From: a virus
Reading direction: 5' to 3' (one strand)
DNA length: 46,067 nt
IMG/VR virus record: IMGVR_UViG_3300044556_000176
The notes under the pieces were generated by a model that saw only the letters and a list, made by a program, of their open reading frames with translations, did not search any database and was not told where the DNA came from. Positions 6,808-46,067 of this stretch are shown here, in pieces. Within the stretch, counting starts at the first letter, position 1; each line of letters starts with the position of its first letter. A program made the translations under genes and the position numbers.

Positions 6808-6820
6808 GATTGATTCCTTT

Positions 6821-7504: not shown

Positions 7505-7523
7505 TTCTCATCCCTTCTGATAA

Positions 7524-7555
7524 GCTCCTGGAGAGCACACTTACCCTCCAGGAGC
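7524..7555 (-). promoter_or_regulatory. Perfect 10-bp stem-loop between genes
   Basis: GCTCCTGGAG (7524-7533) pairs with CTCCAGGAGC (7546-7555), with a 12-nt loop. No U-tract follows, so its function is unclear; it could be an attenuator or a processing/stability element. Confidence 0.4.
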
Positions 7556-7565
7556 ATGCCGTTAA

Positions 7566-7787: not shown

Positions 7788-7836
7788 TTTTCACCTCCTG
7801 TCTTGTCGTCAGGAGATATTATGCGCCATGATCTGG

Positions 7837-11206: not shown

Positions 11207-11757
11207 AACAGATTCATCTCCTTCAGATCTTTCACGATCGCCTTGCAGATGTTGCTCGCAGACGTCTTGCACTGGTGAAGCGTCAGCACAGGAACACCAG
11301 CACGAGCAAAGCACTCAGATGCTGCGAGCATACGGTGCTTCTGGTAGACAAGATCATCGTATCCCCAGCCAGCCTTGCACACATCAGGATCTCGCTCCAT
11401 GCAAGTGTCGACGTCTGTGTCCAGCATTACGATGACAGGCTTAACATCCTTAATCACCTGTGCAAGATACTCAAGATTTGAATCCGTACGCTGCTGATAA
11501 GCCCAGCAAGACAGCGTGGTCCTGTCGAGGATTGCGTTCGCCCCAGCTTTATCGAGAGTCTGGATTGCCACAGCTGCGACCTTCCACGAGTCTCGGTTGA
11601 AGCACGGAGCCGAGTGGCGAGACTTCCCATGAACGTACTCATACGGCTCAAGCATGTCCTTGTTCAAATCGAGAACGGGAAAGCCCAGCTCTTCACTCAG
11701 ACGAGCTGCGAGCGTAGACTTGCCTGCACCATCAATACCTTCGATAGAGATAATCAT
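11203..11757 (-). CDS. tmk: Thymidylate (dNMP) kinase
   Basis: P-loop IEGIDGAGKST and the DRTTLSCWAYQ motif (DRxxxSxxAYQ), as in Tmk. Confidence 0.8.
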   Translation of the reverse strand: MIISIEGIDGAGKSTLAARLSEELGFPVLDLNKDMLEPYEYVHGKSRHSAPCFNRDSWKVAAVAIQTLDKAGANAILDRTTLSCWAYQQRTDSNLEYLAQVIKDVKPVIVMLDTDVDTCMERDPDVCKAGWGYDDLVYQKHRMLAASECFARAGVPVLTLHQCKTSASNICKAIVKDLKEMNLL

Positions 11758-12584
11758 CGTTCATCCTTCCACGGTTCATTCATTCCAATAAAGTGGCATG
11801 CTGCATCATACAAAGTGCGAAAACGATGCACAAACGGTGCGCCAGTCCTGTTGTACGGACGGTCGACAATGTAGCACTGAATAGTCTGCTTACCTGCGAA
11901 TTTGACCAGATTCTTTGGGTCATCATCGAATATTGCCAACACGTCATTCACGTCATAATGATCATGGACGTAGTTGAACTTTTCCTTCGTGAACACGAGT
12001 TCACTGTACTGCAGGTCGTGCTGCTTAAGCCAGTACTCTGTGTCCTCTCGGATATTGTCATACTCGTCAGCAGGACGACTGGAGATGATGACCACGTCAT
12101 ACCACTGGGACAAACGTCTCAATGCGCCATGCGTGCCTGGAATCATGGTCATGTTGCGCTTATGACCTTCCACGCGCCACCGACGCTTAAGCTCAGCGTA
12201 GTCTGCATCATCGAGACACAGAATCTCGTTCAGATGGAGCGATGTCAGGTCGTTCGGAGACGGACTGAGCTGACCGTTGGTAGCCCATCGCAGGAAGTCT
12301 CCTCCGTAGTCTGCCATCACATTGTCAAGGTCAACAAAGACCTTCTTTCTGTTCTGATTCTTCACAGATGGTGCCCCCAATCCGCTTATGTAGCCGTACT
12401 CATCGATCAGTCCTCTGTACCAATCGATGAAGTGATGAACGTCTTTACCGTGACCGATGTAAATGGACGTGCTTGGAAATTCGTCCATGATGACCAGAAA
12501 GCCACGGTCGCCTTCAGAGTCAGGCTTCGACATTTTCAGCGAATAGCCTTCGTAGCAATCTACAATCGCGTACCCGTTCATCAC
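11754..12584 (-). CDS. HAD-superfamily 5'(3')-deoxyribonucleotidase-like phosphatase with an unassigned ~85-aa N-terminal extension
   Basis: HAD motif I VFVDLDNVMAD, motif II IISSRP, and motif IV FDDDPKN. This is the pattern of the NT5C family. 4-nt overlaps on both sides. Confidence 0.65.
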   Translation of the reverse strand: MMNGYAIVDCYEGYSLKMSKPDSEGDRGFLVIMDEFPSTSIYIGHGKDVHHFIDWYRGLIDEYGYISGLGAPSVKNQNRKKVFVDLDNVMADYGGDFLRWATNGQLSPSPNDLTSLHLNEILCLDDADYAELKRRWRVEGHKRNMTMIPGTHGALRRLSQWYDVVIISSRPADEYDNIREDTEYWLKQHDLQYSELVFTKEKFNYVHDHYDVNDVLAIFDDDPKNLVKFAGKQTIQCYIVDRPYNRTGAPFVHRFRTLYDAACHFIGMNEPWKDER

Positions 12585-13381
12585 TTGCCTAGACCCATCT
12601 TTTCAAGACGAGACATCGTATCATAGTATGCCATGTGAGCCATATATGTCGAGTCCCATTTTCCATACCTACCGAGAAGAAGGACATTCTCCTGGTGGTT
12701 GTAGAACTTTGCCTTACCGTCTACCTTAATGATCTTATGAGCACCTTCGACAGGTCTCAGATACTCTGTCTGCTCAACGCCATCGACCCTGCTGTAACGT
12801 GTCCAAGGGGCATCGATATCAACATTGTAGACAATTATGTTGTCTGGAGTAGAAGCCCAACTGTCGTGATTCGGATATGGACTACAGTCAGAAACATACA
12901 TCTCGCGATACAAGCACTGAGACTTCGAATGCGGATAAATCTTGTTCAAAGGAGCTGTGTTGATGACCAGGTCGAACTTACGAGACAGACCTCGCATGTC
13001 GCTAGGCATCACCTCGTCCTCTGTGATTCGCATACCTTGGAGCATGCTCCATGCGTCCATCCAGTTGTATGCCGTGACAGTTTTCATAGATCGGTGAATG
13101 GAGTTGTTCGTCTGGGAGGCTCCAGTCTTAATGGCATACAGCTCAGCCATAGCCCTCTGGTCTGCCTTGTTCCAACGCATGAACTTATCACCATAGCCCA
13201 CGAATGCAGTCTCGATCTCGATAGGCTTCAACGGGAGTCCACAATTGTCATGAAGATAGCGGACACCATGACCTGGATTCGGCTTAGTGGCAGATAGAAT
13301 GGTCGGCATAATGCCTTTGTCCATACAAGCCTTTGCTGCAAGCAAACCTGTCATGCCTGCACCGATGATTGCCACGCTCAT
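12581..13381 (-). CDS. Short Rossmann-fold FAD/NAD(P)-binding protein (266 aa), specific function unknown
   Basis: N-terminal dinucleotide-binding fingerprint VAIIGAGMTGLLAAKA (GxGxxG). ATGA overlaps with the primase-helicase stop and with the next gene. Confidence 0.6.
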   Translation of the reverse strand: MSVAIIGAGMTGLLAAKACMDKGIMPTILSATKPNPGHGVRYLHDNCGLPLKPIEIETAFVGYGDKFMRWNKADQRAMAELYAIKTGASQTNNSIHRSMKTVTAYNWMDAWSMLQGMRITEDEVMPSDMRGLSRKFDLVINTAPLNKIYPHSKSQCLYREMYVSDCSPYPNHDSWASTPDNIIVYNVDIDAPWTRYSRVDGVEQTEYLRPVEGAHKIIKVDGKAKFYNHQENVLLLGRYGKWDSTYMAHMAYYDTMSRLEKMGLGK

Positions 13382-24663: not shown

Positions 24664-27552
24664 TCAAAACCAGCAATAAGGATAACAGACATAGAAATTA
24701 ACAAATTCGTTATTTCCTACAGGTCCATTAGTGTAGATCCATAGATTGTTGTCTGTTGTTTCTTTTGCACTATATCCTGCCATCCATATAGATGCGGTGT
24801 TATTGGAAGGACTTCCTCCTACTGTAGACAGCGTAGCTGGAAACCAAGTTGCAAATTCAGGACAATATTTCGATGGAATGTGCAAAGACCATGATCCTGT
24901 TATTCCCGAGACATTACCGTAGAGGAATACCATTCCAGCAAACACCCTATATTTTATGCGACCGTAAGTATGGTCATCGTAAAGCGTTTTCCAGTCTTCA
25001 AAGCGCATAGCTTTGTATACGTCTTGACTTTTTACGGAATCTCCGTTTCCACCGAAAAGATACTTGTAAGCATTTAAGACCAGGACACTATCTTCATATG
25101 TCCCCTTCACATTTTGTATATAAAGTCCCGAATTGATTCCATTTGGCGTTCCTGTGCCAGCGACTACGCCTATCCACTTTTTGCCGTGAATATTGATGCC
25201 TGCATTTACATGGTCTACAGAAGGTGCTACTGGCTCAATCCATCCTCTCGTGCTATACAGATACACTCTCGAATCGAGACTATTTGTACCGAGGTACGTA
25301 GTCTTAGAATTGAATACAATGCTACCGTTCGCTGTCAAAACTGCATCGTCATCCGTCAACGTAAGGTTTGCGAGGTTGTTGCCTACGACAGATCCACTGC
25401 TTCCCCTCAGACCGACCAACTCGCCAAACAGCGCCAGAACAGACGAATTGGAAGACGACACTGTGCCTATCTCGCCGAGTCCTCCGCACATGCGAATAAC
25501 AGACATTTGTGAATTCGAGCCAAGACCGATCTCGTCAGACCTGAAAAATGCCGTCTCGACCTTACCTTGACGGATATGGAAACCGTTTCCATCGATTAGG
25601 ATGTTCGGTCCAGTGGTGGCATCATTCGGCTGAGTCGTAACGTGAGCACCACTGCTGTCTGTCCAGAAGTAATAGTTGATCTTTTCAACTTTGTTTACAG
25701 CTTCATTCGCAGTCTCGTTCGCACCGTTAATTGCTTTGGCGAGTATGGGGGTGGTAGTCGTGATAGTATTGTCGGTCCACGTCACCTGTGAACGCGTCCA
25801 GAGGTATTTCCCCTCAGACCACTTAGGCTGATTCGTACTCCAGGATCCACCACTCTGTGTAGTGCTACTGGTGGACAGATAATACTGCTCTACGACAGCC
25901 TTAACACCGATTCCAGGGTCTCCCTTTGCACCGTCTGCTCCATCCCTGCCATCAGCGCCTTGAATCAGGCTCCAAGTGTAGTCTGAAGCCACGGAGGACT
26001 CAGTCGGGACTGCCTTGTTGTACGCTAAGCCGATATACTTCTTGCCAGACGGATTGTCAGACATTCCTCCTCCAGAGGCATTGTCTGCATACTTAATCCA
26101 CGTATATAACGTGGAACCGTCTTCACCTGCAGGACCAGGGATGCCTTGTACACCCTGTGGACCTTGTTCGCCAACGATTTTAGACCATGTGTAGTCAGAA
26201 TAGTTCGAAGACTCTGAAGGTGTAGTCTTGTTGTATGCGAGACCTATGTAGTCCTTACCGTCGGGAAGGTCAGACATGCCACTGGTGGGAGTATCTGCAT
26301 ACTTGAGCCATGTGTATCGAGGCTGACCATCCGCTCCAGGCTTACCTTGCAGACCCTGCGGACCAGTTTCACCCTTCATAGAGATCGAATAGCTGACCGT
26401 AGATTTGCCATCGGTATAAGTGATGGTCGTTCTTGTCCACAGATACTGACCAGCATCCAGAGATGGCGGTGAAGTCAACCACGATCCTGTGGGCGCTGTT
26501 GTGCCAGAATTGGAGGCTTGGTACCTTACTTCAGATCCAGATACTCCGACACCGTTTGCTCCGTCTTTACCGTCTGCTCCAGGAGCGCCTGGAGCGCCAT
26601 TGGAACCAGCTGCTCCGTCAGCGCCTTGTCGGCTTACAGAGTACCCGTAAGACACCGTAGAGTCTGTATATGTAAATTGGGTGCGAGTCCACAGATACCA
26701 GCCTTCTTGCACACTAGGAATGGCCGTAAGCCACTCTCCTGTGGGGACTGTAGTACTCGACTGCGACGATTGATATTTGACTTCAGTAGAGGCTATTCCC
26801 CTTCCAGAAGTTCCGTCTCTGCCGTCTTTGCCGTCGACACCGTTTCTGCCTGCTGCACCCTGAATACAAGTCGGATCTGAATATGAAGAACCATCAGAGG
26901 TATACGTCACAGTGCGCTGCCACATGTACATACCCTCTTGCCATTCTGGTGCCGTAGTGGACCAACCAGACTCAGGAGGCGTTGTTTGCGAATTTCCGAG
27001 GGCGTACTCGACGTCTACGCCTTGGATCGGAATCTGCGAGCCGACAACATTTATCTCGTCCGACTTTTCAGACACATTGTGATTTGGCGTGCCGTCTTCG
27101 TTACAAGTCTCATCCTCCGCAGTGGCATATACGGTGCCTTGAACACCCTCTCCGAGGCTTTTGTACGACAGATCGCCCTTTGACGTGAGTTCGCCTATCA
27201 CATGGACTTTGCCCTCTGTCTCCAGATACGCACGGACGCAGTAGAAATCTGACGGCAATCCACCTTCAAGTTCCCCACTCCAGGAGACATATAAGATACC
27301 TCCGACAGATACGGCTGAGATACCAAGAGGTCTTCCTGGTGCCACAGTGTCTCCGACATTCTTTGCGACAGAATAGCCGTCCTTGTTTAGGATTCCATAT
27401 ACGTCTTTTGAACCGTTTGAACGGTGAAAAGATATGGCGCCTGTTGGAGCGGTATTTTGACCGTTTATCTTTTTGTGAGCCTGAACAACGGAGCGAGCCA
27501 TGTTTTCATAGACGGGACTCATGCCAGGAAGAACAAGTCTGTTCATTTTCAC
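24664..27552 (-). CDS. Tail fibre / receptor-binding protein with collagen-like segments (962 aa)
   Basis: Last and largest tail gene. It has five G-X-Y runs and two families of internal repeats, then a non-repetitive C-terminal ~360 aa. GAGGGTG RBS. Confidence 0.8.
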   Translation of the reverse strand: MKMNRLVLPGMSPVYENMARSVVQAHKKINGQNTAPTGAISFHRSNGSKDVYGILNKDGYSVAKNVGDTVAPGRPLGISAVSVGGILYVSWSGELEGGLPSDFYCVRAYLETEGKVHVIGELTSKGDLSYKSLGEGVQGTVYATAEDETCNEDGTPNHNVSEKSDEINVVGSQIPIQGVDVEYALGNSQTTPPESGWSTTAPEWQEGMYMWQRTVTYTSDGSSYSDPTCIQGAAGRNGVDGKDGRDGTSGRGIASTEVKYQSSQSSTTVPTGEWLTAIPSVQEGWYLWTRTQFTYTDSTVSYGYSVSRQGADGAAGSNGAPGAPGADGKDGANGVGVSGSEVRYQASNSGTTAPTGSWLTSPPSLDAGQYLWTRTTITYTDGKSTVSYSISMKGETGPQGLQGKPGADGQPRYTWLKYADTPTSGMSDLPDGKDYIGLAYNKTTPSESSNYSDYTWSKIVGEQGPQGVQGIPGPAGEDGSTLYTWIKYADNASGGGMSDNPSGKKYIGLAYNKAVPTESSVASDYTWSLIQGADGRDGADGAKGDPGIGVKAVVEQYYLSTSSTTQSGGSWSTNQPKWSEGKYLWTRSQVTWTDNTITTTTPILAKAINGANETANEAVNKVEKINYYFWTDSSGAHVTTQPNDATTGPNILIDGNGFHIRQGKVETAFFRSDEIGLGSNSQMSVIRMCGGLGEIGTVSSSNSSVLALFGELVGLRGSSGSVVGNNLANLTLTDDDAVLTANGSIVFNSKTTYLGTNSLDSRVYLYSTRGWIEPVAPSVDHVNAGINIHGKKWIGVVAGTGTPNGINSGLYIQNVKGTYEDSVLVLNAYKYLFGGNGDSVKSQDVYKAMRFEDWKTLYDDHTYGRIKYRVFAGMVFLYGNVSGITGSWSLHIPSKYCPEFATWFPATLSTVGGSPSNNTASIWMAGYSAKETTDNNLWIYTNGPVGNNEFVNFYVCYPYCWF
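25753..27009 (-). repeat. In-frame modular repeats inside the fibre gene
   Basis: Four copies of W(S/L)T..P....(E/A)G.Y(L/M)W.R(T/S)..T(Y/W)T(S/D) at aa 196-222, 273-299, 357-383 and 570-596. Two copies of YTW(L/I)KYAD..GMSD.P.GK.YIGLAYNK..P(S/T)ESS..SDYTWS at aa 413-459 and 483-530. These are separated by G-X-Y runs at aa 232-252, 310-336, 394-410, 461-479 and 532-548. Confidence 0.9.
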
Positions 27553-35518: not shown

Positions 35519-35883
35519 GCGAGAGCCTCCCACCACGGACGCCAATGCGTAGGCAACTGAGGAGTAACCACATTAACTACGCCACATACAATGGTGTTAG
35601 CTGCGTCCGCATCAGCCTTGGTACGGAGAGCGGCTGCGGAAGCTCGAATCGCCTCCGCAGTCGCTTGTCCGTTCGTGGTAACATCCAGAATAGTCAGCAC
35701 CTTAAGCGTGTACGCTGCATTGGCGGCAATGGCGTCGAGCGCATCAGCAGCAGCGTAGTAAACGTTGCCGTTGCTCAGCTCAAGGAACGACTCCATCTCA
35801 TCGTCAGTGAAGACGTAATCGTCAACAGCCTTGTCTCCAGTGAGAAGCCGAACCAGCTTCACCTTGTCAGCGTACTGTCCCAT
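35515..35883 (-). CDS. Head-tail connector/adaptor protein (gp6-like)
   Basis: First gene after the major capsid gene. 122 aa, Ala-rich and helical. AAGGAGG RBS. Confidence 0.55.
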   Translation of the reverse strand: MGQYADKVKLVRLLTGDKAVDDYVFTDDEMESFLELSNGNVYYAAADALDAIAANAAYTLKVLTILDVTTNGQATAEAIRASAAALRTKADADAANTIVCGVVNVVTPQLPTHWRPWWEALA

Positions 35884-35892
35884 GGTGCCTCC

Positions 35893-37026
35893 TTACGCAC
35901 CCACAGACTTGAGAGCGCACTTCGGATCAATGACCGTACCGCCCATGACGTGACGTACCTTGTAGCCGATGGCATCGTGGTCGAAGTCGCCAGCCATAGC
36001 ACCAGCAGAAGCGCCACCGACAGACATGGCATTCGGAGACTTCATGAACAGCTCAGGAGAGCGGTGACCACGGAGGAATGCAAACTCAACGGCACCACGA
36101 GCAGCGGACGGGTCTGCGAGCAGGTAGTAAGCGTCGGAGCCATGCGTCTTATCGAGGACAGGGAGGTAGTGGTTGACAACAAGCTTAAGCTTGCCCTTCA
36201 GCCAGTTGTTCGTACGCATCTGGAAGGACTCCTGGCCACCGTCCCATGCAAGGAACTCGGAAGCGTTGAGGATGTTGTTCGCAGTGACCTCAAGCGCAGG
36301 GGGAACCATGAGGATGGCAGGACCGACCATGATAGGCTCGCCATCGTCGTCCACCTTAGCGGTGAACTTCTCGATAGCCTTCTGAAGGTTCTGAACCGTG
36401 AGCGGATTGGACGACATGAGGTTGTCGTTATTAGAAGAGAAGAACGTGTTGTTCATGAGGAGCTTGGTAGCCTCTCGCTCCTCGGTACGACGAGCAGCCT
36501 TACCAAAGCGCGTAGGCTGGTCGGTAAGGAGGGACAGATCGTCATCGATCATAGCCTCCCAGGAGATGTCGAAACGAGCACCAAACTTCTTCACAGAGAA
36601 CTGGAGCTCAGACTCGCGACGACCGACAGACTTGTACTCGCCCAGCTCATCAACGGTCTTAAGCGCAGCCTCGCCACCGTCCATAGCATAACGCTTGGCA
36701 GGACGGAAGTCAGCCACCTCAGAGACCTTAGCCCACTGGGTGTAAGTCTGGGGAGCCTCAGCGTAGGAAGCGAGAATCTGACGGTCAAGCAGGTCACCGA
36801 AATAAATCGGGAAGTCGCTGGTGGTCAGTGCCTCCTGGAAGCGATACATATCCAGCTTGTTGCCACGCTGAACAAGATTCGCGACAAGATTCGCAGCCTC
36901 AGCCAGATTCTTGTTGTACTGCGGATTGTTGCGAGGAGTGATTCGCACACCCTCGCCACCAAAGAGCTTATCTGCAGTCGCAGCCTCTGCGTTGATAGAC
37001 TCTACAAGCTCAAGAAACTCAGCCAT
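35893..37026 (-). CDS. Major capsid protein (377 aa)
   Basis: Position after the scaffold and the DUF2190-like protein. Size and composition fit the HK97-fold capsid proteins of Mu-gpT-like head modules. Confidence 0.75.
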   Translation of the reverse strand: MAEFLELVESINAEAATADKLFGGEGVRITPRNNPQYNKNLAEAANLVANLVQRGNKLDMYRFQEALTTSDFPIYFGDLLDRQILASYAEAPQTYTQWAKVSEVADFRPAKRYAMDGGEAALKTVDELGEYKSVGRRESELQFSVKKFGARFDISWEAMIDDDLSLLTDQPTRFGKAARRTEEREATKLLMNNTFFSSNNDNLMSSNPLTVQNLQKAIEKFTAKVDDDGEPIMVGPAILMVPPALEVTANNILNASEFLAWDGGQESFQMRTNNWLKGKLKLVVNHYLPVLDKTHGSDAYYLLADPSAARGAVEFAFLRGHRSPELFMKSPNAMSVGGASAGAMAGDFDHDAIGYKVRHVMGGTVIDPKCALKSVGA

Positions 37027-37041
37027 TATTCACACCTTTCT

Positions 37042-37398
37042 TTACGCGCTGACAGGGTCTGCAGCACCATAGGCGAGACCGAGGCAAAGCAGCACAGGGA
37101 CAACGATGTCCGTGCTGGAATGCGTAACAGCCTCAAGCGCAAAACCAACAGGAACTGCCTTACCACCACCCTTCGGCTGAGTAGAAACAACGTCACCGAC
37201 CGTAGTGGTCGCCTTCAGCGTCAGGTTCCACACACCCTTCGTAGCGATGGTCGTGTAGTAGTTGGTACCGTCGTCGGTCTTAGCATCGGTGAGAGCGACA
37301 CCAATAATCTCGCCGACCTGAACGAGTTCACCGCTCTTAACGTCCTCGGTGACAGGGAGCGTCAGGTTCTCGCCGACCTGAACAAAGTTCTTAGCCAT
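37042..37398 (-). CDS. DUF2190-like small head protein
   Basis: 118 aa. Beta-rich N-terminus MAKNFVQVGENLTLPV..GELVQVGEIIGVAL, in the usual position between the scaffold/protease and capsid genes. Confidence 0.6.
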   Translation of the reverse strand: MAKNFVQVGENLTLPVTEDVKSGELVQVGEIIGVALTDAKTDDGTNYYTTIATKGVWNLTLKATTTVGDVVSTQPKGGGKAVPVGFALEAVTHSSTDIVVPVLLCLGLAYGAADPVSA

Positions 37399-37409
37399 TC
37401 GTTTCCTCC

Positions 37410-38435
37410 TTAGCGGCCATTAGCGGCAATCTTAGCCGCGCTCTCGGACAGACCCATAGCCTTGAAGGCATCGGTAAGGTCGACAGCCTCTGCAAGATCA
37501 TCGTCGTTCTCGTGACCCTTGGAGCCCATGCCAGTAACGTTAATGCCACCAGACAGCTTACTGATGTACTCAGCCTCAGCCTTGATAGCCTCCTGGACAG
37601 ACTGCTTCACCTTGTCCTTGTCGAGCTTCTTCTTATTGTCCTCATCCTTAGTCGCCATGAACTTACCAGCCTCCTGCTGGATACGCTCCTTGGTGACCTC
37701 AGGCAGGTCGCTCTCCTTCAGCTCTGCAGCGACGATTGCACCGCACTCAGTAAGCATATGTGCCTCGTTGAGGCGTGCAAGCTCCTGGGTGAGGGTATCG
37801 ATCTGACCCTGAGCCTCGGAAAGCTGCGTGTTCAGACCATTGATGGTGTTGTCTCGCTCACCAATGGCGTTGAGAGCTTCCTCAAGATTCATAGATTCCT
37901 CCTCATTTACGTTTTCAAGTACGTTGTATGGGCTTCGTGCAGCCTCAGCAAACTGAGCCAGAACCTTGCCACCAGCTCCAGCGCGAGTCACAAAGTCAAC
38001 AGACTGGACGAGATTAATCTCTTCCACCAGAAGACCTGCGCGACCCTCAGCTTCACCCTCGTGAACCTTGCCACCAGCGCGAATAGACACGCCAATGTAT
38101 GGTCCAATTTCGTTCAGAGTCTCACGGAAAGGTTCGAACACGATAGCATCACCGTAGATACCAGCACCATTCGCATTGGTCTCCTCATAACGGACGTTCG
38201 TGAGCACGCCTGCGAGATCTCGAAGGTCTCGCTCAGGACGCTCGTAGTTGTCGGAGGACTTTGGGTGGTTCCAGAACATCTGCGCACCCTCGAAAAGCTG
38301 TGCAGAAGCTGCAAGAACGGTCTCGGAATAGTAACCAGAAGAACCCCAACCAGGCTGAATGACCTTGACAGGGTACTTGCCTACGGCTTTGTCTGCTTCA
38401 GTGAGCAGTGAGCCCAAGAATGTGATGTTATCCAT
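37410..38435 (-). CDS. Capsid scaffolding protein (possibly a protease-scaffold)
   Basis: The ATG at 38433-38435 lies 5 nt after GGGAGG. The central and C-terminal parts are coiled-coil-like (LNTQLSEAQGQIDTLTQELARLNEA) and Lys/Glu-rich. Confidence 0.65.
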   Translation of the reverse strand: MDNITFLGSLLTEADKAVGKYPVKVIQPGWGSSGYYSETVLAASAQLFEGAQMFWNHPKSSDNYERPERDLRDLAGVLTNVRYEETNANGAGIYGDAIVFEPFRETLNEIGPYIGVSIRAGGKVHEGEAEGRAGLLVEEINLVQSVDFVTRAGAGGKVLAQFAEAARSPYNVLENVNEEESMNLEEALNAIGERDNTINGLNTQLSEAQGQIDTLTQELARLNEAHMLTECGAIVAAELKESDLPEVTKERIQQEAGKFMATKDEDNKKKLDKDKVKQSVQEAIKAEAEYISKLSGGINVTGMGSKGHENDDDLAEAVDLTDAFKAMGLSESAAKIAANGR

Positions 38436-38471
38436 GTTCACCTCCCGTCAAGCCACACATTCTTACAAAGA

Positions 38472-38583: not shown

Positions 38584-38817
38584 CTAAGGCTCAAATGTAA
38601 TGCCACTATCACCTGTGTATGGAACGGTATGATCGACCTTAGCATCCCAAAACTTGTCGGGAATGCCGTTTGGAAATGCCTTGCAGTACGGCTTGGCACC
38701 TGGAGTGAAGCCTAGAAGGTACTTGCACATAAGGCACATAGGCTGCTTTGCCCTGATGGGCTCATCGACACTATGACCTGGTCCAGGTGAATCCTCGTAA
38801 TGAAAAAAGTCTGTCAT
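38584..38817 (-). CDS. Small Cys-containing protein (77 aa) directly downstream of the ART domain; immunity/antidote candidate
   Basis: The ATG at 38815-38817 has an AGGAG RBS overlapping the MuF-ART stop. Motif CLMCKY..(13)..CKAFP. The track start (GTG at 38865) would overlap the upstream gene by 40 nt. Confidence 0.55.
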   Translation of the reverse strand: MTDFFHYEDSPGPGHSVDEPIRAKQPMCLMCKYLLGFTPGAKPYCKAFPNGIPDKFWDAKVDHTVPYTGDSGITFEP

Positions 38818-38825
38818 CGTTTCTC

Positions 38826-40592
38826 CTAAGGTATAAGCTCGAGCCAGAAGTCTTTCCCGCCCCACTCATTGTCTTCAATATGATGTACTTTAAACTTCGA
38901 GTCTGGGGCGATGAGATATTCCCATTCTCTTGGGTTTTTAGACTCACCATCTACATATATCCCACATCCCTTATTCGGTGGGACATAAATATGCGCTATA
39001 TTATCTTTGCGAAAACCTGTGCTTTTCACAGAGGTCGATACGAACTCAGGAATCTGTTTAGTCTCACCTTCTTTCCATGAATCCCAGAGATCTCCATCGA
39101 ATCCTCGGTTCACAACAATCGGATGAGATGTAACTCCGTATTTTTTAATCGCATTTTCTGCATTTTCGACGTGAGTCCTGACTTTTTCATCAGAGAAAAG
39201 GCTGTTTACTTTACGACCTTTTCTGAGATACTCGTTCATTTGTAGGTAGTAAGATCCCGTGTAGGTCTGAATTGAATCCTTCAAAGGCTCTGGCATGGAA
39301 GAAAACGAGGCCTTTTTGTCTCTGAGCAATTTAACTACATCTGGAAGCTTTCCTCCAGCACAGCTTGCGAACTCAGATTCGTCGCCTTTTGCGAATGCAT
39401 CCATTGCTATATGGTAGTCTTCAGGTCTCAGCGAATTAATCTTCTCTTCTACACCTTTCAGATCCCATTTATCCCAACTGGGGGCGCTAGAAACACCGAC
39501 ACGTTTTGAAGCCGCCTTACCAGCCTTTGTTTTCTTGCTAGGAGTAACCTGTTGCACCTGAGAAGAAACGGTCTTGCTTGGCGAGCTTTTCGTGATGTTA
39601 ACAGCACTGTTGGTGTACTGCTTACCGTACAAAGCCTCGATTGGCTTGCCCAGCATGTCTTCTTCGAGGATATCCTGAAGGAAATCGCATCGGCATCCTG
39701 GGAAACGAGGCGGATGCATGTGACCACTGGGGAACTCTTTGTTAATCGGTATCCAGCCGACACGCTCGTTCTCCTTGCAGCCGTCAGACACACGGTCGTC
39801 CTCAAGCGTCTGCCATGCCTTCATCATCTTAACGCCATTGTCCTGAAGGTAGTTACCGACCTGAGCGTTTCCCTCACAGTAGGCATTCGCTAGCTCTGTG
39901 ACAGCGACCAGCACAGCACGATTCGACACATGCTTCTGGGGCATCGGGACTGCGAATTCCTCGAACTTGTCTTTGATAGCATTGGCTATATCGTTGTAAG
40001 AAGAACCAGACTTGACGCCATCGGAGACAATACGCGCGATCTCCTTGCGAGTGGTGTCGTTGATCTGCGTTACAGCCTCTGCAGCATGCTTCTTAGCGTA
40101 CTCTTGTGCTCTGAAGTTAGGAAGTGACACCCATCCAGACTTATCCGCCTTAACATTGCGGACTCTGGGTGCCTCCTGAAGAGAGGCACCATCGGGTGCA
40201 CTGGCGGATTCAGATGAAGTTGACGACTTCGACAGGGATGAGAAGAACCACCCAGTGCACCCGAGGTCACGGCATTGCTCTACAGCACCTGCAAGCCACA
40301 CTCGATAAATGTAATTCTCGATTACATGCTGCAATTCAGCAGAGTGTCGCTTGACCTCGACCCTTATTATCGCGCTATATTTGTTCTTCAGGTCACGGGA
40401 ATCACGAGGTTTTTCTGCTTCGAGGATTTCATCTCCCTCAGGCAGTCGCTCCTCAATACCTTTCCACGTAGCCCAGAACACAGCTGCAACGTCAAGAGCC
40501 ATAGCAGAAGCCCACGGCTGAATGATGGCATTGTGCTTCTTGATAGCCAATGCATTGCGATACTTGGCTATGGTGCCGTAGGGTTCTGCCAT
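38826..40592 (-). CDS. MuF/SPP1-gp7-like minor head protein fused to a C-terminal R-S-E ADP-ribosyltransferase domain (588 aa)
   Basis: The MuF core ends in HMHPPRFPGCRCDF (about 39681), followed by a Ser/Lys-rich linker. ART motifs: YTGSYYLQMNEYLR; VVNRG (Arg codon at 39105-39107); STS (39030-39038); EWE (38919-38927). The ATG at 40590-40592 overlaps the upstream small-ORF stop. Confidence 0.8.
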   Translation of the reverse strand: MAEPYGTIAKYRNALAIKKHNAIIQPWASAMALDVAAVFWATWKGIEERLPEGDEILEAEKPRDSRDLKNKYSAIIRVEVKRHSAELQHVIENYIYRVWLAGAVEQCRDLGCTGWFFSSLSKSSTSSESASAPDGASLQEAPRVRNVKADKSGWVSLPNFRAQEYAKKHAAEAVTQINDTTRKEIARIVSDGVKSGSSYNDIANAIKDKFEEFAVPMPQKHVSNRAVLVAVTELANAYCEGNAQVGNYLQDNGVKMMKAWQTLEDDRVSDGCKENERVGWIPINKEFPSGHMHPPRFPGCRCDFLQDILEEDMLGKPIEALYGKQYTNSAVNITKSSPSKTVSSQVQQVTPSKKTKAGKAASKRVGVSSAPSWDKWDLKGVEEKINSLRPEDYHIAMDAFAKGDESEFASCAGGKLPDVVKLLRDKKASFSSMPEPLKDSIQTYTGSYYLQMNEYLRKGRKVNSLFSDEKVRTHVENAENAIKKYGVTSHPIVVNRGFDGDLWDSWKEGETKQIPEFVSTSVKSTGFRKDNIAHIYVPPNKGCGIYVDGESKNPREWEYLIAPDSKFKVHHIEDNEWGGKDFWLELIP

Positions 40593-40732
40593 TAGTGATG
40601 CCTCCATTCGAACTTCTGTTCATCGACGATTCGCTTTGCGTTTTCCTCAGGGTCTCTGAACAGATCCATCAAGGCAAACGGAATAAAAGCGACCACCAGA
40701 ATAAGAATCGGCACAAAAGACTCTACATCCAT
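40592..40732 (-). CDS. Small single-TM protein (46 aa) between the portal and MuF genes; below the ORF-track cutoff
   Basis: Hand translation gives MDVESFVPILILVVAFIPFALMDLFRDPEENAKRIVDEQKFEWRHH. Its ATG overlaps the portal stop (TGATG) and its TAA overlaps the MuF ATG (TAATG). Confidence 0.5.
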   Translation of the reverse strand: MDVESFVPILILVVAFIPFALMDLFRDPEENAKRIVDEQKFEWRHH

Positions 40733-42519
40733 CAGATACCCTTCTCCCTAAGCTCAGCCACCATGTTATCGAGCAACTGAATGTACGACTCTTCGACCTC
40801 ACCAGCAGCCTTGTCTGCCTTATCCTCAGGAGTCTTGGCATTCTTGATATCGTCGCCATTCTTCTTGGCATTGTCAATTGCCCCTGCAGCCTTAGCCGCC
40901 TGAGCTGCTTGCTGATCTGCAGCGGATTGCTGCCCCATAGCAATCTCGAGAGCCTTCTGCTGCTTCTCCTCTTCGACCTCGTCCCAACTCTTCGGCTCAT
41001 CGGGGAACAGCTTATCCACAATGTCCGTGTCCTCACCGAGCGCAGTGAGCAGCTGGGTAGTAGCAGTCTTGAGATCGATGGTATTGGCAGGGGTCTGACC
41101 AGACAGGGTCACACTCTTTACGATGGCATCGATGCGCTCGTTGATATCCTCCTGGAGGATGGGCGGGAACTTGATATCGAACGTACGGTTAAGCTCGCCT
41201 GTATCAACGTAAGACTCTCCATAGTCGTTGAACGAGCGGACACCCTTGAGCTTACCACCAGGCTTCAGCGCAGACTGGTCGATGACGTAGCCCAGCACCG
41301 TGCTGAAGATGTCCGTCCACAGCTCCTGACGCTCCTGGAACATGAGGAGCATCGGCTGCTCCATCGCCTTGGCAGTAGCAAGGTTACCAGTGCTAGGGTC
41401 TCCGAAGTAGTGCTCGTAGATACCAGTCGCAGCGCATACCATCAGCAGAGCACGACGACCATCGTCCACAGCCACCGTGGCACCACTCTTAGGCATGGGT
41501 GTAAGATCGAAATTGTCTGAGGACATCCATACCTGAGCCGCTTGCCCAGGGAGATCACCATTCATAGGGTTAGAACCACCGTTAATGGCTCCTTCGAGCA
41601 CCTGCTTGGCTTGCCCCATACCCGTGGCACCAGACTTGCTCGTAGCCTTCCATGCGAACTTGGACAGGCTCTTGACAATGGTGTACCAATCCTCAAGGAA
41701 TTCCTTGTACGCCTTAGCCCAGTCGATGGCTGCGTAGATCTCAGAAACACCGTATTCCATGTCGGACAGGCAGTTCGTCTTCACATGGTATACGGGATTC
41801 ATAGCCATAACCTCGATGCCGTTGAAGTACCGAGGCAGACCTCCCTGAGGCATGTAGTTGATGTCTGGGTACATTGCCTGTCGGGTCTCGTACTTCTGCG
41901 AGCCTGCTTCCTTAGGCTGCTGCCACTGACGGAAATAGTACCACGGCTCCTTACTGTCCTCGGGATTGTAGATGATGCGAGTGATCTCGTTCAGCGGGAT
42001 GGTACGCACACGAGTGGCACCGTTGAGAGGGTCTGTGAAGAATGTGAAGAACAGATTTGCAGTCACCTGGAGCTCAGTCTCCTTGACTAGCATAGCCTGT
42101 TCGCCTGTAAGCTCAGCCTTGTTCTTGGAGTCGCCCATGAACGCATCGATAACAGACTGGACATCCTCGTCTGCAGCTACCACGTCGACACCATGACCGA
42201 ACACGTAGTTCGCCTGAGTGGCTACGGCTCGCTTGACCAGAGGATTCTTCAACCAATACACCCTTGCCATAGCGGCAATCTTGTCGATGGATGCCTTGGT
42301 GAACTGACGATTCAGCGTAGAGTCACCGATACGCTCGTAGCCCACGTCATCCAGAGCCAGCTCCAGCTCAGCGATACGCTCCTGCAGCAGCTCGTTGTTG
42401 CTGTGCTCGGTGAAAGCTATGTTGCCGTACAGCTCGACAGCCTCGCTGAGACTGTTAAGCTGTCCACCGCTCAGCCCATTGGCGATCTTCAGGAGCGGAT
42501 GATTCTTGTCCATTGCCAT
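40732..42519 (-). CDS. Portal protein (SPP1 gp6-like)
   Basis: 595 aa, directly after terL and before MuF. AGGAGG RBS. Ala/Gln/Lys-rich C-terminal tail. Confidence 0.85.
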   Translation of the reverse strand: MAMDKNHPLLKIANGLSGGQLNSLSEAVELYGNIAFTEHSNNELLQERIAELELALDDVGYERIGDSTLNRQFTKASIDKIAAMARVYWLKNPLVKRAVATQANYVFGHGVDVVAADEDVQSVIDAFMGDSKNKAELTGEQAMLVKETELQVTANLFFTFFTDPLNGATRVRTIPLNEITRIIYNPEDSKEPWYYFRQWQQPKEAGSQKYETRQAMYPDINYMPQGGLPRYFNGIEVMAMNPVYHVKTNCLSDMEYGVSEIYAAIDWAKAYKEFLEDWYTIVKSLSKFAWKATSKSGATGMGQAKQVLEGAINGGSNPMNGDLPGQAAQVWMSSDNFDLTPMPKSGATVAVDDGRRALLMVCAATGIYEHYFGDPSTGNLATAKAMEQPMLLMFQERQELWTDIFSTVLGYVIDQSALKPGGKLKGVRSFNDYGESYVDTGELNRTFDIKFPPILQEDINERIDAIVKSVTLSGQTPANTIDLKTATTQLLTALGEDTDIVDKLFPDEPKSWDEVEEEKQQKALEIAMGQQSAADQQAAQAAKAAGAIDNAKKNGDDIKNAKTPEDKADKAAGEVEESYIQLLDNMVAELREKGI

Positions 42520-42530
42520 TCAGATACCTC

Positions 42531-44138
42531 CTACACTGGTGAGATGATGTTGGGTACGTCGAGCTCGACCAGTGAAGCACCAGTCCTACGGCTGGCGAGC
42601 TCCTGAGTGAGGATAGCGGCATAGGATGCAGTGTCGACTTGGTCGTCGTGAGCGCCCATGGGGAAGCCGACGAGCTCATCCTCGTAGTCCCCCAGCCATG
42701 CGGCACCCATACGATGGAAGACCTTGTGGCTCTCGTAACGAGCACCCATGGGGATAGCCTTGGTGACCTTGTCCTTGGTGGCGTTCAGCTCCATTACAGG
42801 CACACCAGCATTGCGCAGCATCTGGAAGACGGGACGACCAACACCATTGACCTCGATGCCCATGCACGTGGGCATGTAGCGTCTGTACTGGTCTAGCAGG
42901 AGCCTAGGCTGTTCAGCGCCTTCCATCTGTGCCCTGAACACATCCCAAAGAAGCAGGTCGTTCTTCGGAGTGACGATCCATGTACTGCATACGAACCAGT
43001 CTGCTGTGGTCTTGGCAGAGGCTGTCGGATCGACGGTCTGGAAGTGCCAGCATTGCTCAGGCACGAATCGTTCATCGCCCGTGTCCCTGTGAAGCACGTA
43101 CGTATGGTCGATGAGCTCCCAGTACCTGAAATCCTTCCTACGGAACATGGTACCGTCTGGAGGACTGGGGTGCTGCTGATACATAGCATTGAACATGTAG
43201 CTGCCCATGGCGATTCGTGTACGATTCAGTGACACCTCATCATACATCTCTGGCCACAGCGCCTCTCCGTCAGAACGACCGAGCTGATCGGTGCCCTCTG
43301 CCAGAGCGGGAAGGCTCAGTACCTTCCACTTGTCCGCACCCTTCTCCATATCCGCCAACAGACGTCCTGCAAGGTCGTCCTGATGCCAACGAGTCATAAC
43401 GACAATCACGGCACCGCCTGGAGCCAAACGAGTGCGCAGCGTAGTCTGGTACCAATTGTAGGCAGAGCGCCTCACCGTCTCAGAGCTAGCCTCTTCATAG
43501 TTCTTAATCGGGTCGTCAATAATGGCGATATGAGCACCTTTACCAGTGATAGCGCCACCAACACCTGCTGCAACAATGCCATTGTCGTGGCTTCCTTCGA
43601 GTCCCCATCGGTCTGCACGAGCAGCATCCTCTGCGAGCTTGACTCCGAACAGTTCCTCGCTGTCTCTCATCTTGTTCCTCGTCATTCGACCGAATTCCTG
43701 AGCGAGGTCTGCCGAGTAGGATGTGAGCATCCACGTCATCCATGGATGGTTGCCCATTCCCCACACAGGAAACTCCTGGGAGACGAGGCGAGACTTACCG
43801 TGTCGAGGCGGCATGAAGATCATAACACGCAGATTATCGCTCTCCGACTCATTCATGCGTGCCTCGTGAATAGCGACTACGTCATTGATGGTCGCTTCGA
43901 GCTGAGCTGCAATGAGCCTGTGGTGGCGTCCGATCTTGTAGCTCTCGTCCATGTACAATGTGTAGTCGAGAAGGTGGCGACGTGCGAGTTCCTGTCGGAT
44001 ACATTCGAGCTGACCGAGCATGTTAGGCACATCTTTGATGTCGAGCGGTTGAGTCCTGTCTCCATCGGACAACTGGGTGGGAAGACCTTCAGGAGCTTTT
44101 GTTCCGACATGGGACACGACCTTGTTACGTCTAGGCAT
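42531..44138 (-). CDS. terL: Terminase large subunit
   Basis: Walker A-like FMPPRHGKS, Walker B IAIIDDP, coupling motif TRWHQDDL, and nuclease-domain acidic motifs (VDPTAS, GAHDDQVD). Confidence 0.9.
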   Translation of the reverse strand: MPRRNKVVSHVGTKAPEGLPTQLSDGDRTQPLDIKDVPNMLGQLECIRQELARRHLLDYTLYMDESYKIGRHHRLIAAQLEATINDVVAIHEARMNESESDNLRVMIFMPPRHGKSRLVSQEFPVWGMGNHPWMTWMLTSYSADLAQEFGRMTRNKMRDSEELFGVKLAEDAARADRWGLEGSHDNGIVAAGVGGAITGKGAHIAIIDDPIKNYEEASSETVRRSAYNWYQTTLRTRLAPGGAVIVVMTRWHQDDLAGRLLADMEKGADKWKVLSLPALAEGTDQLGRSDGEALWPEMYDEVSLNRTRIAMGSYMFNAMYQQHPSPPDGTMFRRKDFRYWELIDHTYVLHRDTGDERFVPEQCWHFQTVDPTASAKTTADWFVCSTWIVTPKNDLLLWDVFRAQMEGAEQPRLLLDQYRRYMPTCMGIEVNGVGRPVFQMLRNAGVPVMELNATKDKVTKAIPMGARYESHKVFHRMGAAWLGDYEDELVGFPMGAHDDQVDTASYAAILTQELASRRTGASLVELDVPNIISPV

Positions 44139-44907
44139 CTTCCACCGCCTCAGCAGTCACGGGTAAAGCGGGAAGTGCCGCATCATCCACATGATCTCCC
44201 ACGGTCACTTCCACAGCTTGTGCAATTTCTTTCACCTTGGCGCGTAATTGTTCATCTGTTAGGGCTTTCACGTCTACCTGCCAATTCACGTCTAGCTTGT
44301 GCTTAGTCTCGACGGAAATCTCCATTACCCGCTTGGCATTCCACACATCAGGCATACGACATTCGAGATATCGAATCATCGCCGAGACGTTGCCGTTAAT
44401 AGCAGCAGAGAACAGAGCATTCTCGACCAATGAGCATGCGAAAATGCGAGCCTCTTCCAAGTCGCACCAGAACTTGGCATACTTGCCTTCTTGTCCTCGT
44501 GCCATTTCTTCCTTACCACGACGACGCCACTCAGTGATTGTACGAGGGTTCAGACCAACACGAGCTGAAGCAGTGGTGAATGTGTAGCCTTGCTTCACTA
44601 GCGCGACAATTTGAGGAGCCTTCTCGTCGAATTTGTGGTAGCCACCCTTAGCTGCTGCTTCCTCAATGTTAGTATGGACGGCACAATATTTGCCGTCCAC
44701 CGTTGCCCCCTTTGTGCATTGCTTTCCTGTTCGAGGATTGTGTCCTTGACAACGAGGAGTCCCCCAGTAAGTCCAATGCTCAGGGTCTTCAATATGCTTA
44801 GGATGTGGGTTATTTTTGGAATACTTAGGCTTCGACTTCTTAGATCCTGAGACCTTCTTCGAAGCCTTAGTCTTCCCATTCTCCCTGTTAGTCGTCATTA
44901 TCACCAC
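44131..44907 (-). CDS. terS: Putative terminase small subunit
   Basis: Same as 1497-2273. Confidence 0.65.
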   Translation of the reverse strand: MVIMTTNRENGKTKASKKVSGSKKSKPKYSKNNPHPKHIEDPEHWTYWGTPRCQGHNPRTGKQCTKGATVDGKYCAVHTNIEEAAAKGGYHKFDEKAPQIVALVKQGYTFTTASARVGLNPRTITEWRRRGKEEMARGQEGKYAKFWCDLEEARIFACSLVENALFSAAINGNVSAMIRYLECRMPDVWNAKRVMEISVETKHKLDVNWQVDVKALTDEQLRAKVKEIAQAVEVTVGDHVDDAALPALPVTAEAVEDA

Positions 44908-45038
44908 ATTCCTATTATTTAAATATATACTCCTTATCTATTATCGCTCTTTTTCTTATAGATTACCTTATCAATTTCATTATATTTTCTTATGCATTAA
45001 TACGTTTTCTTGTTTTACCACATTAACGACATCTCTCG

Positions 45039-45139
45039 AAAATATTTTTATTATTTTCAAGATTCCCGATGAAAGTTGAACAATTTCGAGCGATAATAGT
45101 GTTGCAGGGAATTGACAACGACTTCGAAAGGACACTGCA
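45039..45139 (+). promoter_or_regulatory. Early module copy A (second occurrence, owing to the window wrap)
   Basis: Identical to 2405-2505. Confidence 0.65.
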
Positions 45140-45868
45140 ATGACCACCATGACCAACTTCTCCACTACCGCTGAGCGCATTGGTAAGACCACTTCTGAGA
45201 AGAGGGCTGTCGAGGCTATGGCGAATTCTCTTGGCTCCGTTGAGAACGCCATCGCCGACGGCGACACCCACTACGAGGGTCACTGCTTCATCGACGATGC
45301 CGAGCAGTACGCATCCGAGGGTCTCGATTCGCTCGACAAGCGCACCCTCAACCACATCTCCGATGAGCGCATCAACGAGCTCGTTCACGAGGTAGCCCTC
45401 ACTTTCGATTACCTCGAAGAGTACAACGAGCCAGCCACTTCACCTGAGGCTAACAATGACAAGGAGAACGCCATGACCGCGCCCCAGACTTCTGTTTTCA
45501 TCCCTTCCTCTGCCGCTTCCATGTCCTTCGAGGACTTCATCGACGGCATGTATCTGTTCGCTAGCAAGTGGGTCGGCGAGATCGCCGTTGATCGTGTGGC
45601 TATTCGTGTTGAGTCTCTCTACAACGACATCACGTTCCGCACGATGGTGTTCGAGTATCGTCAGGCTGTGCTTTCTCGTGACACCAACAAGAAGCTCATG
45701 TTCCGCTCGATGGTGACTGGTGACGCTGTCTGCACCGCTGACGACTGGGACAACGACATCTATTCATCCAAGGTGAATGCGTACGGCGACGTGCTCTACG
45801 ATATGCTCGTTCGCCTCCCTAGGAATGCCGAGGATGAGCGCGAATCCCTCAAGAAGTTCTGCGAGTAG
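45140..45868 (+). CDS. Hypothetical acidic early protein (same gene as 2506-3234)
   Basis: Identical translation. Confidence 0.75.
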   Translation: MTTMTNFSTTAERIGKTTSEKRAVEAMANSLGSVENAIADGDTHYEGHCFIDDAEQYASEGLDSLDKRTLNHISDERINELVHEVALTFDYLEEYNEPATSPEANNDKENAMTAPQTSVFIPSSAASMSFEDFIDGMYLFASKWVGEIAVDRVAIRVESLYNDITFRTMVFEYRQAVLSRDTNKKLMFRSMVTGDAVCTADDWDNDIYSSKVNAYGDVLYDMLVRLPRNAEDERESLKKFCE

Positions 45869-45876
45869 AATCTGTT

Positions 45877-45907
45877 GGCTGGGTGGGGAGACCTGCCCAG
45901 CCTTTTT
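45877..45907 (+). terminator. Rho-independent terminator (same as 3243-3273)
   Basis: Identical sequence. Confidence 0.8.
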
Positions 45908-45911
45908 CTCT

Positions 45912-46005
45912 GAATATTTTCAAGATTTTCTTGATTCCCAATAATAGTTCAACTATTTAGAGGGATAATAAGGTCGTCAGGAAGTAACGACTGAAGGGAA
46001 CTGAA
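45912..46005 (+). promoter_or_regulatory. Early module copy B (second occurrence)
   Basis: Identical to 3278-3371. Confidence 0.65.
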
Positions 46006-46067
46006 ATGGAGAACGTCAAGGAAATCGTCAAGATCGGTCAGAAGCTTACCGCCCACAAGGGTGAGTG
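46006..46067 (+). CDS. 5' fragment of the 88-aa early gene (same as 3372-3433), cut by the window end
   Basis: Identical to 3372-3433. Confidence 0.65.
   Translation, partial: MENVKEIVKIGQKLTAHKGE

Follow-up and report, generated by a model that had tools for sequence, protein, structure and literature searches.

Does a minor head protein of a bacteriophage carry a working enzyme into the cell that the phage infects? The question is raised by a gene on the minus strand of IMG/VR record IMGVR_UViG_3300044556_000176 (the window, that is, the whole 46,067-nt stretch of viral DNA that was analysed), in which a head protein of the MuF type (SPP1 gp7 / Mu F) is joined to a C-terminal ADP-ribosyltransferase (ART) domain. 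The reading favored here, to which a probability of roughly 0.6 is given, is that the product is a MuF/SPP1-gp7-type minor head protein with a competent ART C-terminus, which would be packaged in the head, injected with the DNA and act on the host. The features on which the argument depends are listed below; residue numbers are those of a 593-aa frame, and five is subtracted to obtain those of the 588-aa protein.

38826..40592, minus strand: MuF-ART fusion gene (588 aa and a TAG stop)
39681..40043, minus strand: MuF (SPP1 gp7 / Mu F) domain (Pfam envelope aa 189-309)
39468..39620, minus strand: linker rich in Ser, Lys and Thr (about aa 335-378, from the protein alignment of relatives)
38829..39470, minus strand: C-terminal R-S-E ART domain, an N-terminal helical subdomain followed by a beta-sandwich core
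39222..39263, minus strand: YTGSYYLQMNEYLR, the Y-x-x-x-Y...N-x-x-L-R motif (aa 449-462), in the helical region before the NAD pocket
39105..39107, minus strand: catalytic Arg R501 in IVVNRG (R in 123/127 diverse and 120/120 close relatives)
39030..39038, minus strand: S524-T525-S526 (S524 in 127/127 diverse relatives, STS in 120/120 close ones; aligned with the STS of CdtA)
38919..38927, minus strand: E561-W-E563 of the ADP-ribosylating turn-turn (ARTT) loop (in diverse relatives E563 in 127/127; position 561 is E in 116 and Q in 11)

The MuF-ART protein and its catalytic domain

An initial annotation of this DNA had described the gene as a MuF/gp7 minor head protein fused to an ART, and the domain searches bear this out, with sequence-to-PDB comparison and fold tests in agreement. 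The N-terminal part matches PF04233 Phage_Mu_F (47.3 bits against a cut-off of 29.6, E 3.9e-12, aa 189-309), and this match ends in the segment PRFPGCRCDF at aa 300-309; the head-protein PHROGs 2662, 2468 and 115 match the same part, and phrog_595 covers both the MuF and the ART domains. The C-terminal part matches PF03496 ADPrib_exo_Tox (50.8 bits against a cut-off of 23.4, E 1.7e-13, aa 443-581) and PF01129 ART (24.0 against 22.3), as well as Alt-like and exoenzyme-type ART PHROGs, the Alt-like phrog_802 giving a weak, partial match (E 6.7e-6). A sequence search of the PDB matched CdtA and iota Ia, with the STS and ExE motifs aligned. Both domains are found together in more than 100 homologue clusters.

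The open frame spans 40607 to 38826 (593 aa), and the in-frame ATG at 40607 is an alternative start with a poorer context than the ATG at 40592. The latter, which gives the 588-aa protein, overlaps the stop of a 46-aa upstream open reading frame (ORF) in the sequence TAATG and has a GGAGG 8 nt upstream, and most relatives are annotated with 588 or 591 aa; for these reasons it is the likelier start, as had been proposed.

Conservation of the catalytic residues was assessed in 127 diverse relatives obtained from the ART-domain search and in 120 close homologues of 85-100% identity. The complete R-S-E set claimed for the protein (R501, STS and E561-W-E563) is present and near-invariant in both groups, and every motif, from PRFPGCRCDF and the linker to YTGSYYLQMNEYLR, the Arg of VVNRG, STS and EWE, lies where the initial annotation had placed it. 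In the helical region, Y449 (125/127), N458 (126/127) and R462 (113/127) are all present in the window protein. Among the close homologues, IVVNRG is kept in 120/120 and the second Glu of E-x-E in 119/120; at the first Glu position 113 have E, 5 have D and 1 has G, and the middle residue is variable.

The possibility that the C-terminus has some other fold was also checked, and both the profile search and the AlphaFold2/Foldseek comparison place it in the ART fold. The AlphaFold2 model, built on a 58-sequence alignment, has a mean predicted local distance difference test (pLDDT) of 83.8 and a predicted template modelling score (pTM) of 0.79. Foldseek returned 146 PDB matches at E<=1e-3, and among the 50 listed all are R-S-E ARTs. 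The best is Plx2A (E 2.6e-13), and the leading matches also include Certhrax, C3bot, Vis, CDTa, iota-like toxins, C2I and ExoS; E-values run from 1e-13 to 1e-11 for Plx2A, Lmo0066, Certhrax, C3 and CDTa, the best template modelling (TM) scores being 0.62-0.80 (0.68/0.80 for Lmo0066). In BFVD the matches include phage proteins named 'minor capsid', 'head morphogenesis' and 'ADP-ribosyltransferase domain and MuF-like fusion', and relatives with the same fold are common in phages of non-host-associated habitats.

Judging by sequence and model, the C-terminus is most likely a catalytically competent mono-ADP-ribosyltransferase of the R-S-E (VIP2/C3/iota-like) class. The original assignment to a C3/VIP2/Alt class thus stands for VIP2 and C3, now joined by iota, and needs correction for T4 Alt, which is more distant and whose packaging logic differs from a MuF fusion. 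By the rule that separates C3-type from iota/VIP2-type enzymes, E-x-E rather than Q-x-E goes with an arginine acceptor; since the motif here is E-x-E, arginine is the predicted acceptor. The branch is sparsely populated, because an exhaustive search of the C-terminal 214 aa against 1.84 billion representative proteins gave no more than 181 relatives at E<=1e-3, of which 2 reach E<=1e-30. The nearest three representatives (65%, 46% and 35% identity) likewise have the MuF CRC hallmark ahead of their ART.

Codon-level comparison of 13 distinct loci gave ratios of nonsynonymous to synonymous substitution rates (dN/dS) of 0.035 for the MuF core, 0.115 for the ART core and 0.23 for the N-terminal helices of the ART. 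The ART is under purifying selection and evolves faster than its MuF carrier, as is expected of a host-facing domain.

Some relatives of ~690-703 aa (P0095, P0102, P0108 and P0119; L023-L032) have an extra segment of ~100-115 aa (SSIVFLGTF..WQIGAYRSDDGKTKYVAY...). Its insertion point corresponds to about position 40157 of the window (after aa 145), in a Ser-rich linker that joins the N-terminal helical region to the MuF domain.

The exchangeable cassette and the downstream Cys/His gene

The conserved N-terminal 325 aa were used as a probe to collect 26 IMG/VR loci, to which six metagenome loci were added, and comparison of these 32 revealed that the ART is carried on a segment that is exchanged as a unit.

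38715..39620 (approximate), minus strand: exchangeable cassette of ~0.9 kb, comprising the linker, the effector domain and the first ~34 codons of a 77-aa gene
L006:4224-6011 and L021: type 1 cassette, with a GIYRGV...YGRGMY pattern
L005, L007, L009-L011 and L020: type 3 cassette, with a divergent ART (PF03496, 24.7 bits)
L012: type 4 cassette, with an HExxH motif (VMHEFAHAF)

Four cassette types are distinguished: the present ART (n=23), the divergent ART (n=6), the HExxH domain (n=1) and a domain without matches (n=2). Between types the MuF core is 87-97% identical and the C-terminal ~270 aa are 18-25% identical. At the DNA level, identity to L006, L012 and L007 is 90-100% in both flanks and 35-60% inside the cassette; the upstream breakpoint lies at ~39,620, just past LGKPIE.LYGKQY, and the downstream one at ~38,715, inside the 77-aa gene. 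The C-terminal domains of types 1 and 4 have no Pfam, PHROG or PDB-sequence match and may be undescribed effector domains.

The combination of one MuF N-terminus with differing C-termini is the pattern that characterizes MuF polymorphic toxins. That the ART can be replaced by unrelated domains while the MuF stays near-identical points to a function directed at the host, as in an arms race, and speaks against a role in assembly. A single delivery module with at least four effectors and sharp boundaries also allows clean comparisons between effectors, and it might serve as a template for engineered phages that deliver enzymes.

The gene that contains the downstream breakpoint follows the fusion gene directly.

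38584..38817, minus strand: 77-aa gene whose product has a CxxC...C...H pattern; it is annotated in relatives too (30 homologue clusters)
38815..38828, minus strand: coupling junction, in which the stop TAG (38826-38828) lies within the Shine-Dalgarno sequence AGGAG (38823-38827), followed by a 5-nt spacer and the ATG (38815-38817)

The 77-aa gene starts 8 nt past the MuF-ART stop, in the arrangement tAGGAG-N5-ATG, and the two genes are probably translationally coupled, given that the stop codon is itself part of the Shine-Dalgarno sequence. The product has two unlike halves. The C-terminal half is strongly conserved (CKAFPNGIPDKFW..DHT.PY.GD.GITFEP) and 77-90% identical across cassette types, whereas the N-terminal half is 66-84% identical within types and 19-36% between them, and tracks the effector type (Spearman correlation 0.84). 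Residues C28, C31, C45 and H63 are invariant, and in the wider family the core reads C.AFP.GIP...DHT.PY.GD..TF.P. The protein has no Pfam match and matches phrog_33375, a family listed with unknown function; its AlphaFold2 model is poor (pLDDT 59.5), with the first 23 residues disordered.

Relatives of the conserved half number 229 in IMG/VR and 108 among the genomes of bacteria and archaea. A MuF gene, as judged by Pfam, is the immediate upstream neighbour in 20 of 35 distinct distant IMG/VR loci, often with an ADPrib_exo_Tox, ART-PolyVal, PARP, ATLF-like, Hint or LPD3 domain fused to the MuF. Measured from the profile matches, the upstream MuF protein always has 102-599 residues beyond the MuF match (27 distant IMG/VR loci with a detected MuF), and a Methanoculleus virus with a short MuF has no gene of the 77-aa type. 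Contexts in the genome collection are mixed, some being without detectable MuF, under crude ORF calling. Members of the family occur in Clostridia, Actinomadura, Planctomycetes, Chlorobi, Methanosarcinales and Methanospirillum (relatives in L058-L191), often directly behind MuF-effector or polyvalent-protein genes.

As far as these sequence contexts indicate, the 77-aa protein goes with MuF-effector genes in general and does not form an immunity family specific to the ART, because its conserved half is found beside many unrelated effectors. It is a candidate partner of the effector, whether as immunity protein, chaperone or adaptor; alternatively, its variable tail could merely hitch-hike with the cassette, the crossover falling in the conserved half. 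A more ambitious proposal, put forward as speculation and rated doubtful, is that it represents an undescribed and very widespread two-part companion of MuF effectors, methanogen proviruses included, in which an effector-matched disordered tail would act as inhibitor or packaging chaperone and a zinc-binding half would have a common function and serve as the homology anchor for cassette exchange. If this were true, effector swapping in a virulent lineage would reflect an arms race with host defences and not competition linked to lysogeny.

Head module, genome and lineage

The fusion gene lies in a head module transcribed from the minus strand.

40732..42519, minus strand: portal gene (phrog_10963, E 7.4e-78), immediately upstream
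40592..40732, minus strand: 46-aa hydrophobic ORF between portal and MuF-ART, starting MDVESFVPILILVVAFIPFALMDLF and overlapping each neighbour by one base (TGATG, TAATG)
37410..38441, minus strand: protease/scaffold-like gene
37042..37398, minus strand: decoration/cement protein gene
35893..37026, minus strand: major capsid protein gene

For the last three genes (35893..38441) phrog_15531, PF09956 and PF25209 are cited jointly. The order, which is the same in related contigs, is terminase, portal, 46-aa ORF, MuF-ART, 77-aa gene, protease/scaffold, decoration and capsid, and a place in the head module beside the portal is as expected for a packaged MuF protein. The 46-aa ORF has no Pfam or PHROG match and is called as a gene in every related contig examined. 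On the opposite strand, a 622-aa ORF (35545..37413, plus strand) lies antisense to the genes for the major capsid and decoration proteins. Its sequence is of low complexity and rich in Arg, Ser and Leu, and the frame most likely stays open because of the codon usage of the coding strand, without being a gene.

Bases 1..3433 of the window are identical to 42635..46067, and this exact end repeat of 3,433 bases indicates a complete genome of 42,634 bp, which in the assembly is either circular or terminally redundant; the ORFs of the terminase small/large subunit region accordingly appear twice. The genome is that of a siphovirus, with almost all genes on the minus strand. It encodes a tape measure protein and tail proteins, a holin, an amidase lysin with choline-binding repeats, a DnaE-type polymerase, a primase-MCM helicase, an SNF2 helicase, a Cas4-like nuclease, ThyX, a dUTPase, a nucleotide kinase and an NT5C-like nucleotidase.

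5927..16215, minus strand: replication/nucleotide module, unusual for a 42-kb siphovirus
8177..11314, minus strand: DnaE-type Pol III alpha with a PHP domain
13378..16215, minus strand: primase-Toprim-MCM fusion

ThyX, the dUTPase, the dNMP-kinase-like protein and the NT5C-like nucleotidase also belong to this module, which could hint at altered nucleotide pools or DNA modification. Elsewhere, a 962-aa tail-fibre-like protein (24664..27552, minus strand) has collagen triple-helix repeats, and the tail gene after the fibre gene in relatives has weak ricin-B-lectin matches (L001), which suggests carbohydrate receptors. The sole oppositely transcribed block (2506..4357, plus strand; L001:3113-5453 in a relative) contains five to six small genes and no lysogeny markers; one of its genes has a match to Lar_restr_allev (restriction alleviation) in relatives, and one has a weak ProQ-C-like match in the window.

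The ORFs scanned in the 42.6-kb genome include no integrase, recombinase or repressor gene, and no close copy turned up in 185,579 species-representative genomes, a search that returned neither a named host nor a prophage copy. On both counts the phage looks virulent, or at least non-integrating, as far as gene content can tell. The same scan of the ORFs, covering the neighbours of MuF-ART and the rest of the genome, detected no ADP-ribosylhydrolase (ARH), macro or NADAR domain.

The lineage is abundant in metagenomes, with more than 100 protein clusters on contigs of 40-46 kb and dozens of contigs, and it may therefore offer a tractable natural system. Some related contigs bear sample identifiers of the form 7000000xxx, a number series that probably belongs to Human Microbiome Project samples, and nearby phage matches derive from human faecal samples. 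The portal is closest to that of Methanoculleus viruses (43.6%), followed by Arthrobacter and Glutamicibacter phages (~33%), and the lysin to that of Eggerthella phage PMBT5 (51.5%, full length), with lysins of Bifidobacterium and Propionibacterium phages also related. From the portal and lysin relatives an actinobacterial host is likely. The nearest isolated-virus relatives of the MuF domain (47%), as of the portal, are the archaeal Methanoculleus viruses Blf4 and L4768, ahead of any bacteriophage in the collection; L4768 (L192) has a short MuF without an effector. An archaeal virus was considered in view of these best isolate matches and rejected, since the lysin is a bacterial-type amidase with choline-binding repeats and the polymerase is of the DnaE type.

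Proposed action, rival explanations and known systems

If the fusion is indeed a packaged effector, the protein would be made late, along with the other head proteins, and its MuF part would bind the portal, so that a few copies would enter the procapsid by analogy with SPP1 gp7. That protein binds the portal and DNA and is required for efficient infection (cited in PMC10083569). At the next infection the fusion protein would leave the capsid with the DNA, and its ART would spend host NAD+ to ADP-ribosylate arginines of one or more host proteins, with the effect of aiding takeover or of blunting defence; the effector part would be one allele of the cassette. Proteins that enter with phage DNA act before phage genes are expressed, which makes them candidates for first-strike takeover or anti-defence.

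Several points weigh against this proposal. In the published accounts compared here, the presence of MuF-fused ARTs in virions and their ejection are still treated as hypotheses. The dose would be small, since SPP1 gp7 is present in only few copies per capsid. Among close relatives, 6/120 have D or G in place of the first Glu of E-x-E, aa 380-430 are modelled with low confidence (pLDDT 46-74), and a protein-arginine target is not certain, given that R-S-E ARTs include guanine/DNA modifiers and NAD glycohydrolases.

The presence of a small companion gene raises the alternative that the protein is a polymorphic toxin with its own immunity, an antibacterial ART used against competing or superinfected cells. 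The 77-aa protein would be the cognate immunity protein, its variable tail blocking the ART active site and so protecting the producer cell until lysis. A small downstream ORF (<150 aa), proposed to encode immunity, accompanies 89% of MuF toxins (PMC5576092), and Bxa and Apk2 are each paired with a small non-enzymatic immunity protein (PMC11699363). The co-variation of the 77-aa N-terminal half with the cassette type, the coupling created by the MuF-ART stop inside the 77-aa Shine-Dalgarno sequence, and the invariable extension of the MuF before 77-aa relatives, set beside the short-MuF Methanoculleus virus that lacks the gene, fit as well. However, the conserved half accompanies domains as different as ADPrib_exo_Tox, ART-PolyVal, PARP, ATLF and Hint, and also occurs in contexts without detectable MuF; the co-variation possibly reflects no more than the position of the crossover; and the structure model of the 77-aa protein is poor. 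With neither lysogeny functions nor prophage copies, the rationale of competition between lysogens is weak, and a lytic phage needs little immunity late in infection. This alternative is therefore rated unlikely; with no hydrolase encoded and no lysogeny functions, an effector of a lytic phage fits better than a toxin of lysogen competition.

Other readings place the action of the enzyme elsewhere. It could work late, uninjected, in the producer cell or the particle, modifying the portal, DNA ends, scaffold or nucleic acid, or acting as an NADase, to aid assembly or host shutdown. The gene does sit with late head genes, and no reversal enzyme is encoded, so that activity in the producer cell would have to be tolerated. 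Some R-S-E enzymes modify guanine or merely hydrolyse NAD+. NADases with the ART fold are described in PMC13285283. Such a role is nevertheless quite improbable, because the ART is replaced by an HExxH or an unrelated domain on near-identical MuF, which speaks against an essential part in assembly, and because the top structural neighbours are protein-modifying ARTs and not Scabin- or pierisin-like enzymes. The protein might also be an exotoxin freed by phage lysis, which would modify animal-cell proteins in a human-associated habitat in the manner of Bxa, which is encoded by a Bacteroides prophage, ADP-ribosylates epithelial proteins and helps gut colonization (PMC11699363). The structural neighbours are mainly eukaryote-targeting toxins (C3, CDTa, iota, C2I, Certhrax, ExoS), and human faecal samples are the source of the nearby phage matches already mentioned; but the genome has no signal peptide or cell-entry (B-component) partner for the toxin, an apparently virulent phage would gain nothing obvious by helping a lysogen, the joining of the enzyme to a head protein that binds the portal better fits packaging, and same-fold relatives are widespread in phages of habitats that are not host-associated. 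There is little to recommend this explanation. Least credible of all is an inactive ART remnant that the head protein keeps only for bulk or for its structure: nothing specific favors it beyond the occasional replacement of the first Glu and the variable middle residue of E-x-E in close relatives, and it runs counter to intact, near-invariant catalytic residues, a dN/dS of 0.115 in the ART core and an NAD-binding fold modelled with high confidence.

The fusion on which the preferred reading is built has been documented repeatedly. Zhang et al. (2012; PMC3482391) listed the MuF phage-head route among the delivery routes of polymorphic toxins, and Jamet et al. (2017; PMC5576092) defined the MuF toxins, 14% of 191 being ARTs. 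EFV (UniProt Q838U8), from a prophage of E. faecalis V583, was the first MuF1-ART studied, and both its ART activity and its toxicity have been proven (PMC5576092). Many ARTs of the Alt/VIP2 family are fused to MuF and likely packaged and injected (Iyer et al., 2017, 2022; PMC5512222, PMC9503650), a MuF-VIP2 fusion occurs in lytic Microbacterium phages (Jacobs-Sera et al., 2020; PMC7302621), and Bxa of B. stercoris is an arginine-specific MuF-ART with immunity proteins of the ARH and the binding type (PMC11699363). Both the MuF-ART fusion and the hypothesis of its injection along with the DNA are thus already in the literature (PMC5576092, PMC9503650, PMC7302621, PMC11699363), and the fusion itself, having been described several times, settles no open question.

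Each of these systems resembles the present one in part. The MuF toxins of Jamet et al. share the constant MuF, the variable C-terminal toxin, the small downstream ORF and the position in the packaging/head module, but in the account given there all the reported cases come from temperate phages and prophages, most of them from Firmicutes (PMC5576092), and no sign of a temperate phage was found here. That link is an association and not a mechanistic requirement, for the lytic Microbacterium phages carry the fusion too (PMC7302621). EFV likewise joins an N-terminal MuF to a C-terminal ART, on a Firmicute prophage, whereas no lysogeny genes were found in the present phage; a tblastn search of phages gave no match to the ART domain at E<=1e-5, and EFV was not among the matches found. 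Bxa of PhiBxa shares a MuF-ART in the head-morphogenesis region, a swapped C-terminal toxin family and small ORFs after it; it differs in belonging to a prophage of a Gram-negative host and in having as neighbours an ARH1-type ADP-ribosylhydrolase and an immunity protein of the binding type, where the present gene has no ARH, macro or NADAR neighbour and one small Cys/His gene. The same absence of an adjacent ADP-ribosylhydrolase sets it apart from the ART-ARH pairs (Bxa/BAH; Lmo0066 type). Percival gp4 (Microbacterium clusters EH and EJ) comes from lytic siphoviruses of Actinobacteria-type lineages, is the same fusion and is a predicted virion component (PMC7302621); it is a Foldseek match (E 2.3e-11) with ~19% identity in the structural alignment. 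The homologue in Floof, which lacks the ART, is the same kind of presence/absence polymorphism (PMC7302621). These Microbacterium phages have a different genome type and replication module, and that account describes neither a cassette series nor a conserved Cys/His gene downstream.

T4 Alt is likewise an R-S-E ART that resides in the head and is delivered with the DNA, and Alt-like proteins are structural matches (E ~4e-10), although the similarity to phrog_802 is weak. Alt is a stand-alone protein with an N-terminal capsid-targeting sequence, is processed by the prohead protease, is present in tens of copies per head and acts on RNA polymerase. Here, in contrast, the vehicle is a portal-binding MuF domain. 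Plx2A (5urp), C3bot, Certhrax, CDTa, iota Ia, C2I and Listeria Lmo0066 (8za7) have the same fold and the same order of R, S-T-S and E-x-E, but at 15-24% identity; the C3-like and binary toxins and Lmo0066 are secreted exotoxins or toxin-immunity effectors with no fusion to a head protein.

Against this background, what is new is the apparently virulent lineage, the divergent ART branch without an encoded ADP-ribosylhydrolase, and a four-allele cassette with mapped boundaries that reaches into the first ~34 codons of the 77-aa gene. The conserved Cys/His companion is not mentioned in the portions of the MuF-ART literature compared. What interest the locus has lies in the cassette system and its companion gene, and not in the fusion itself.

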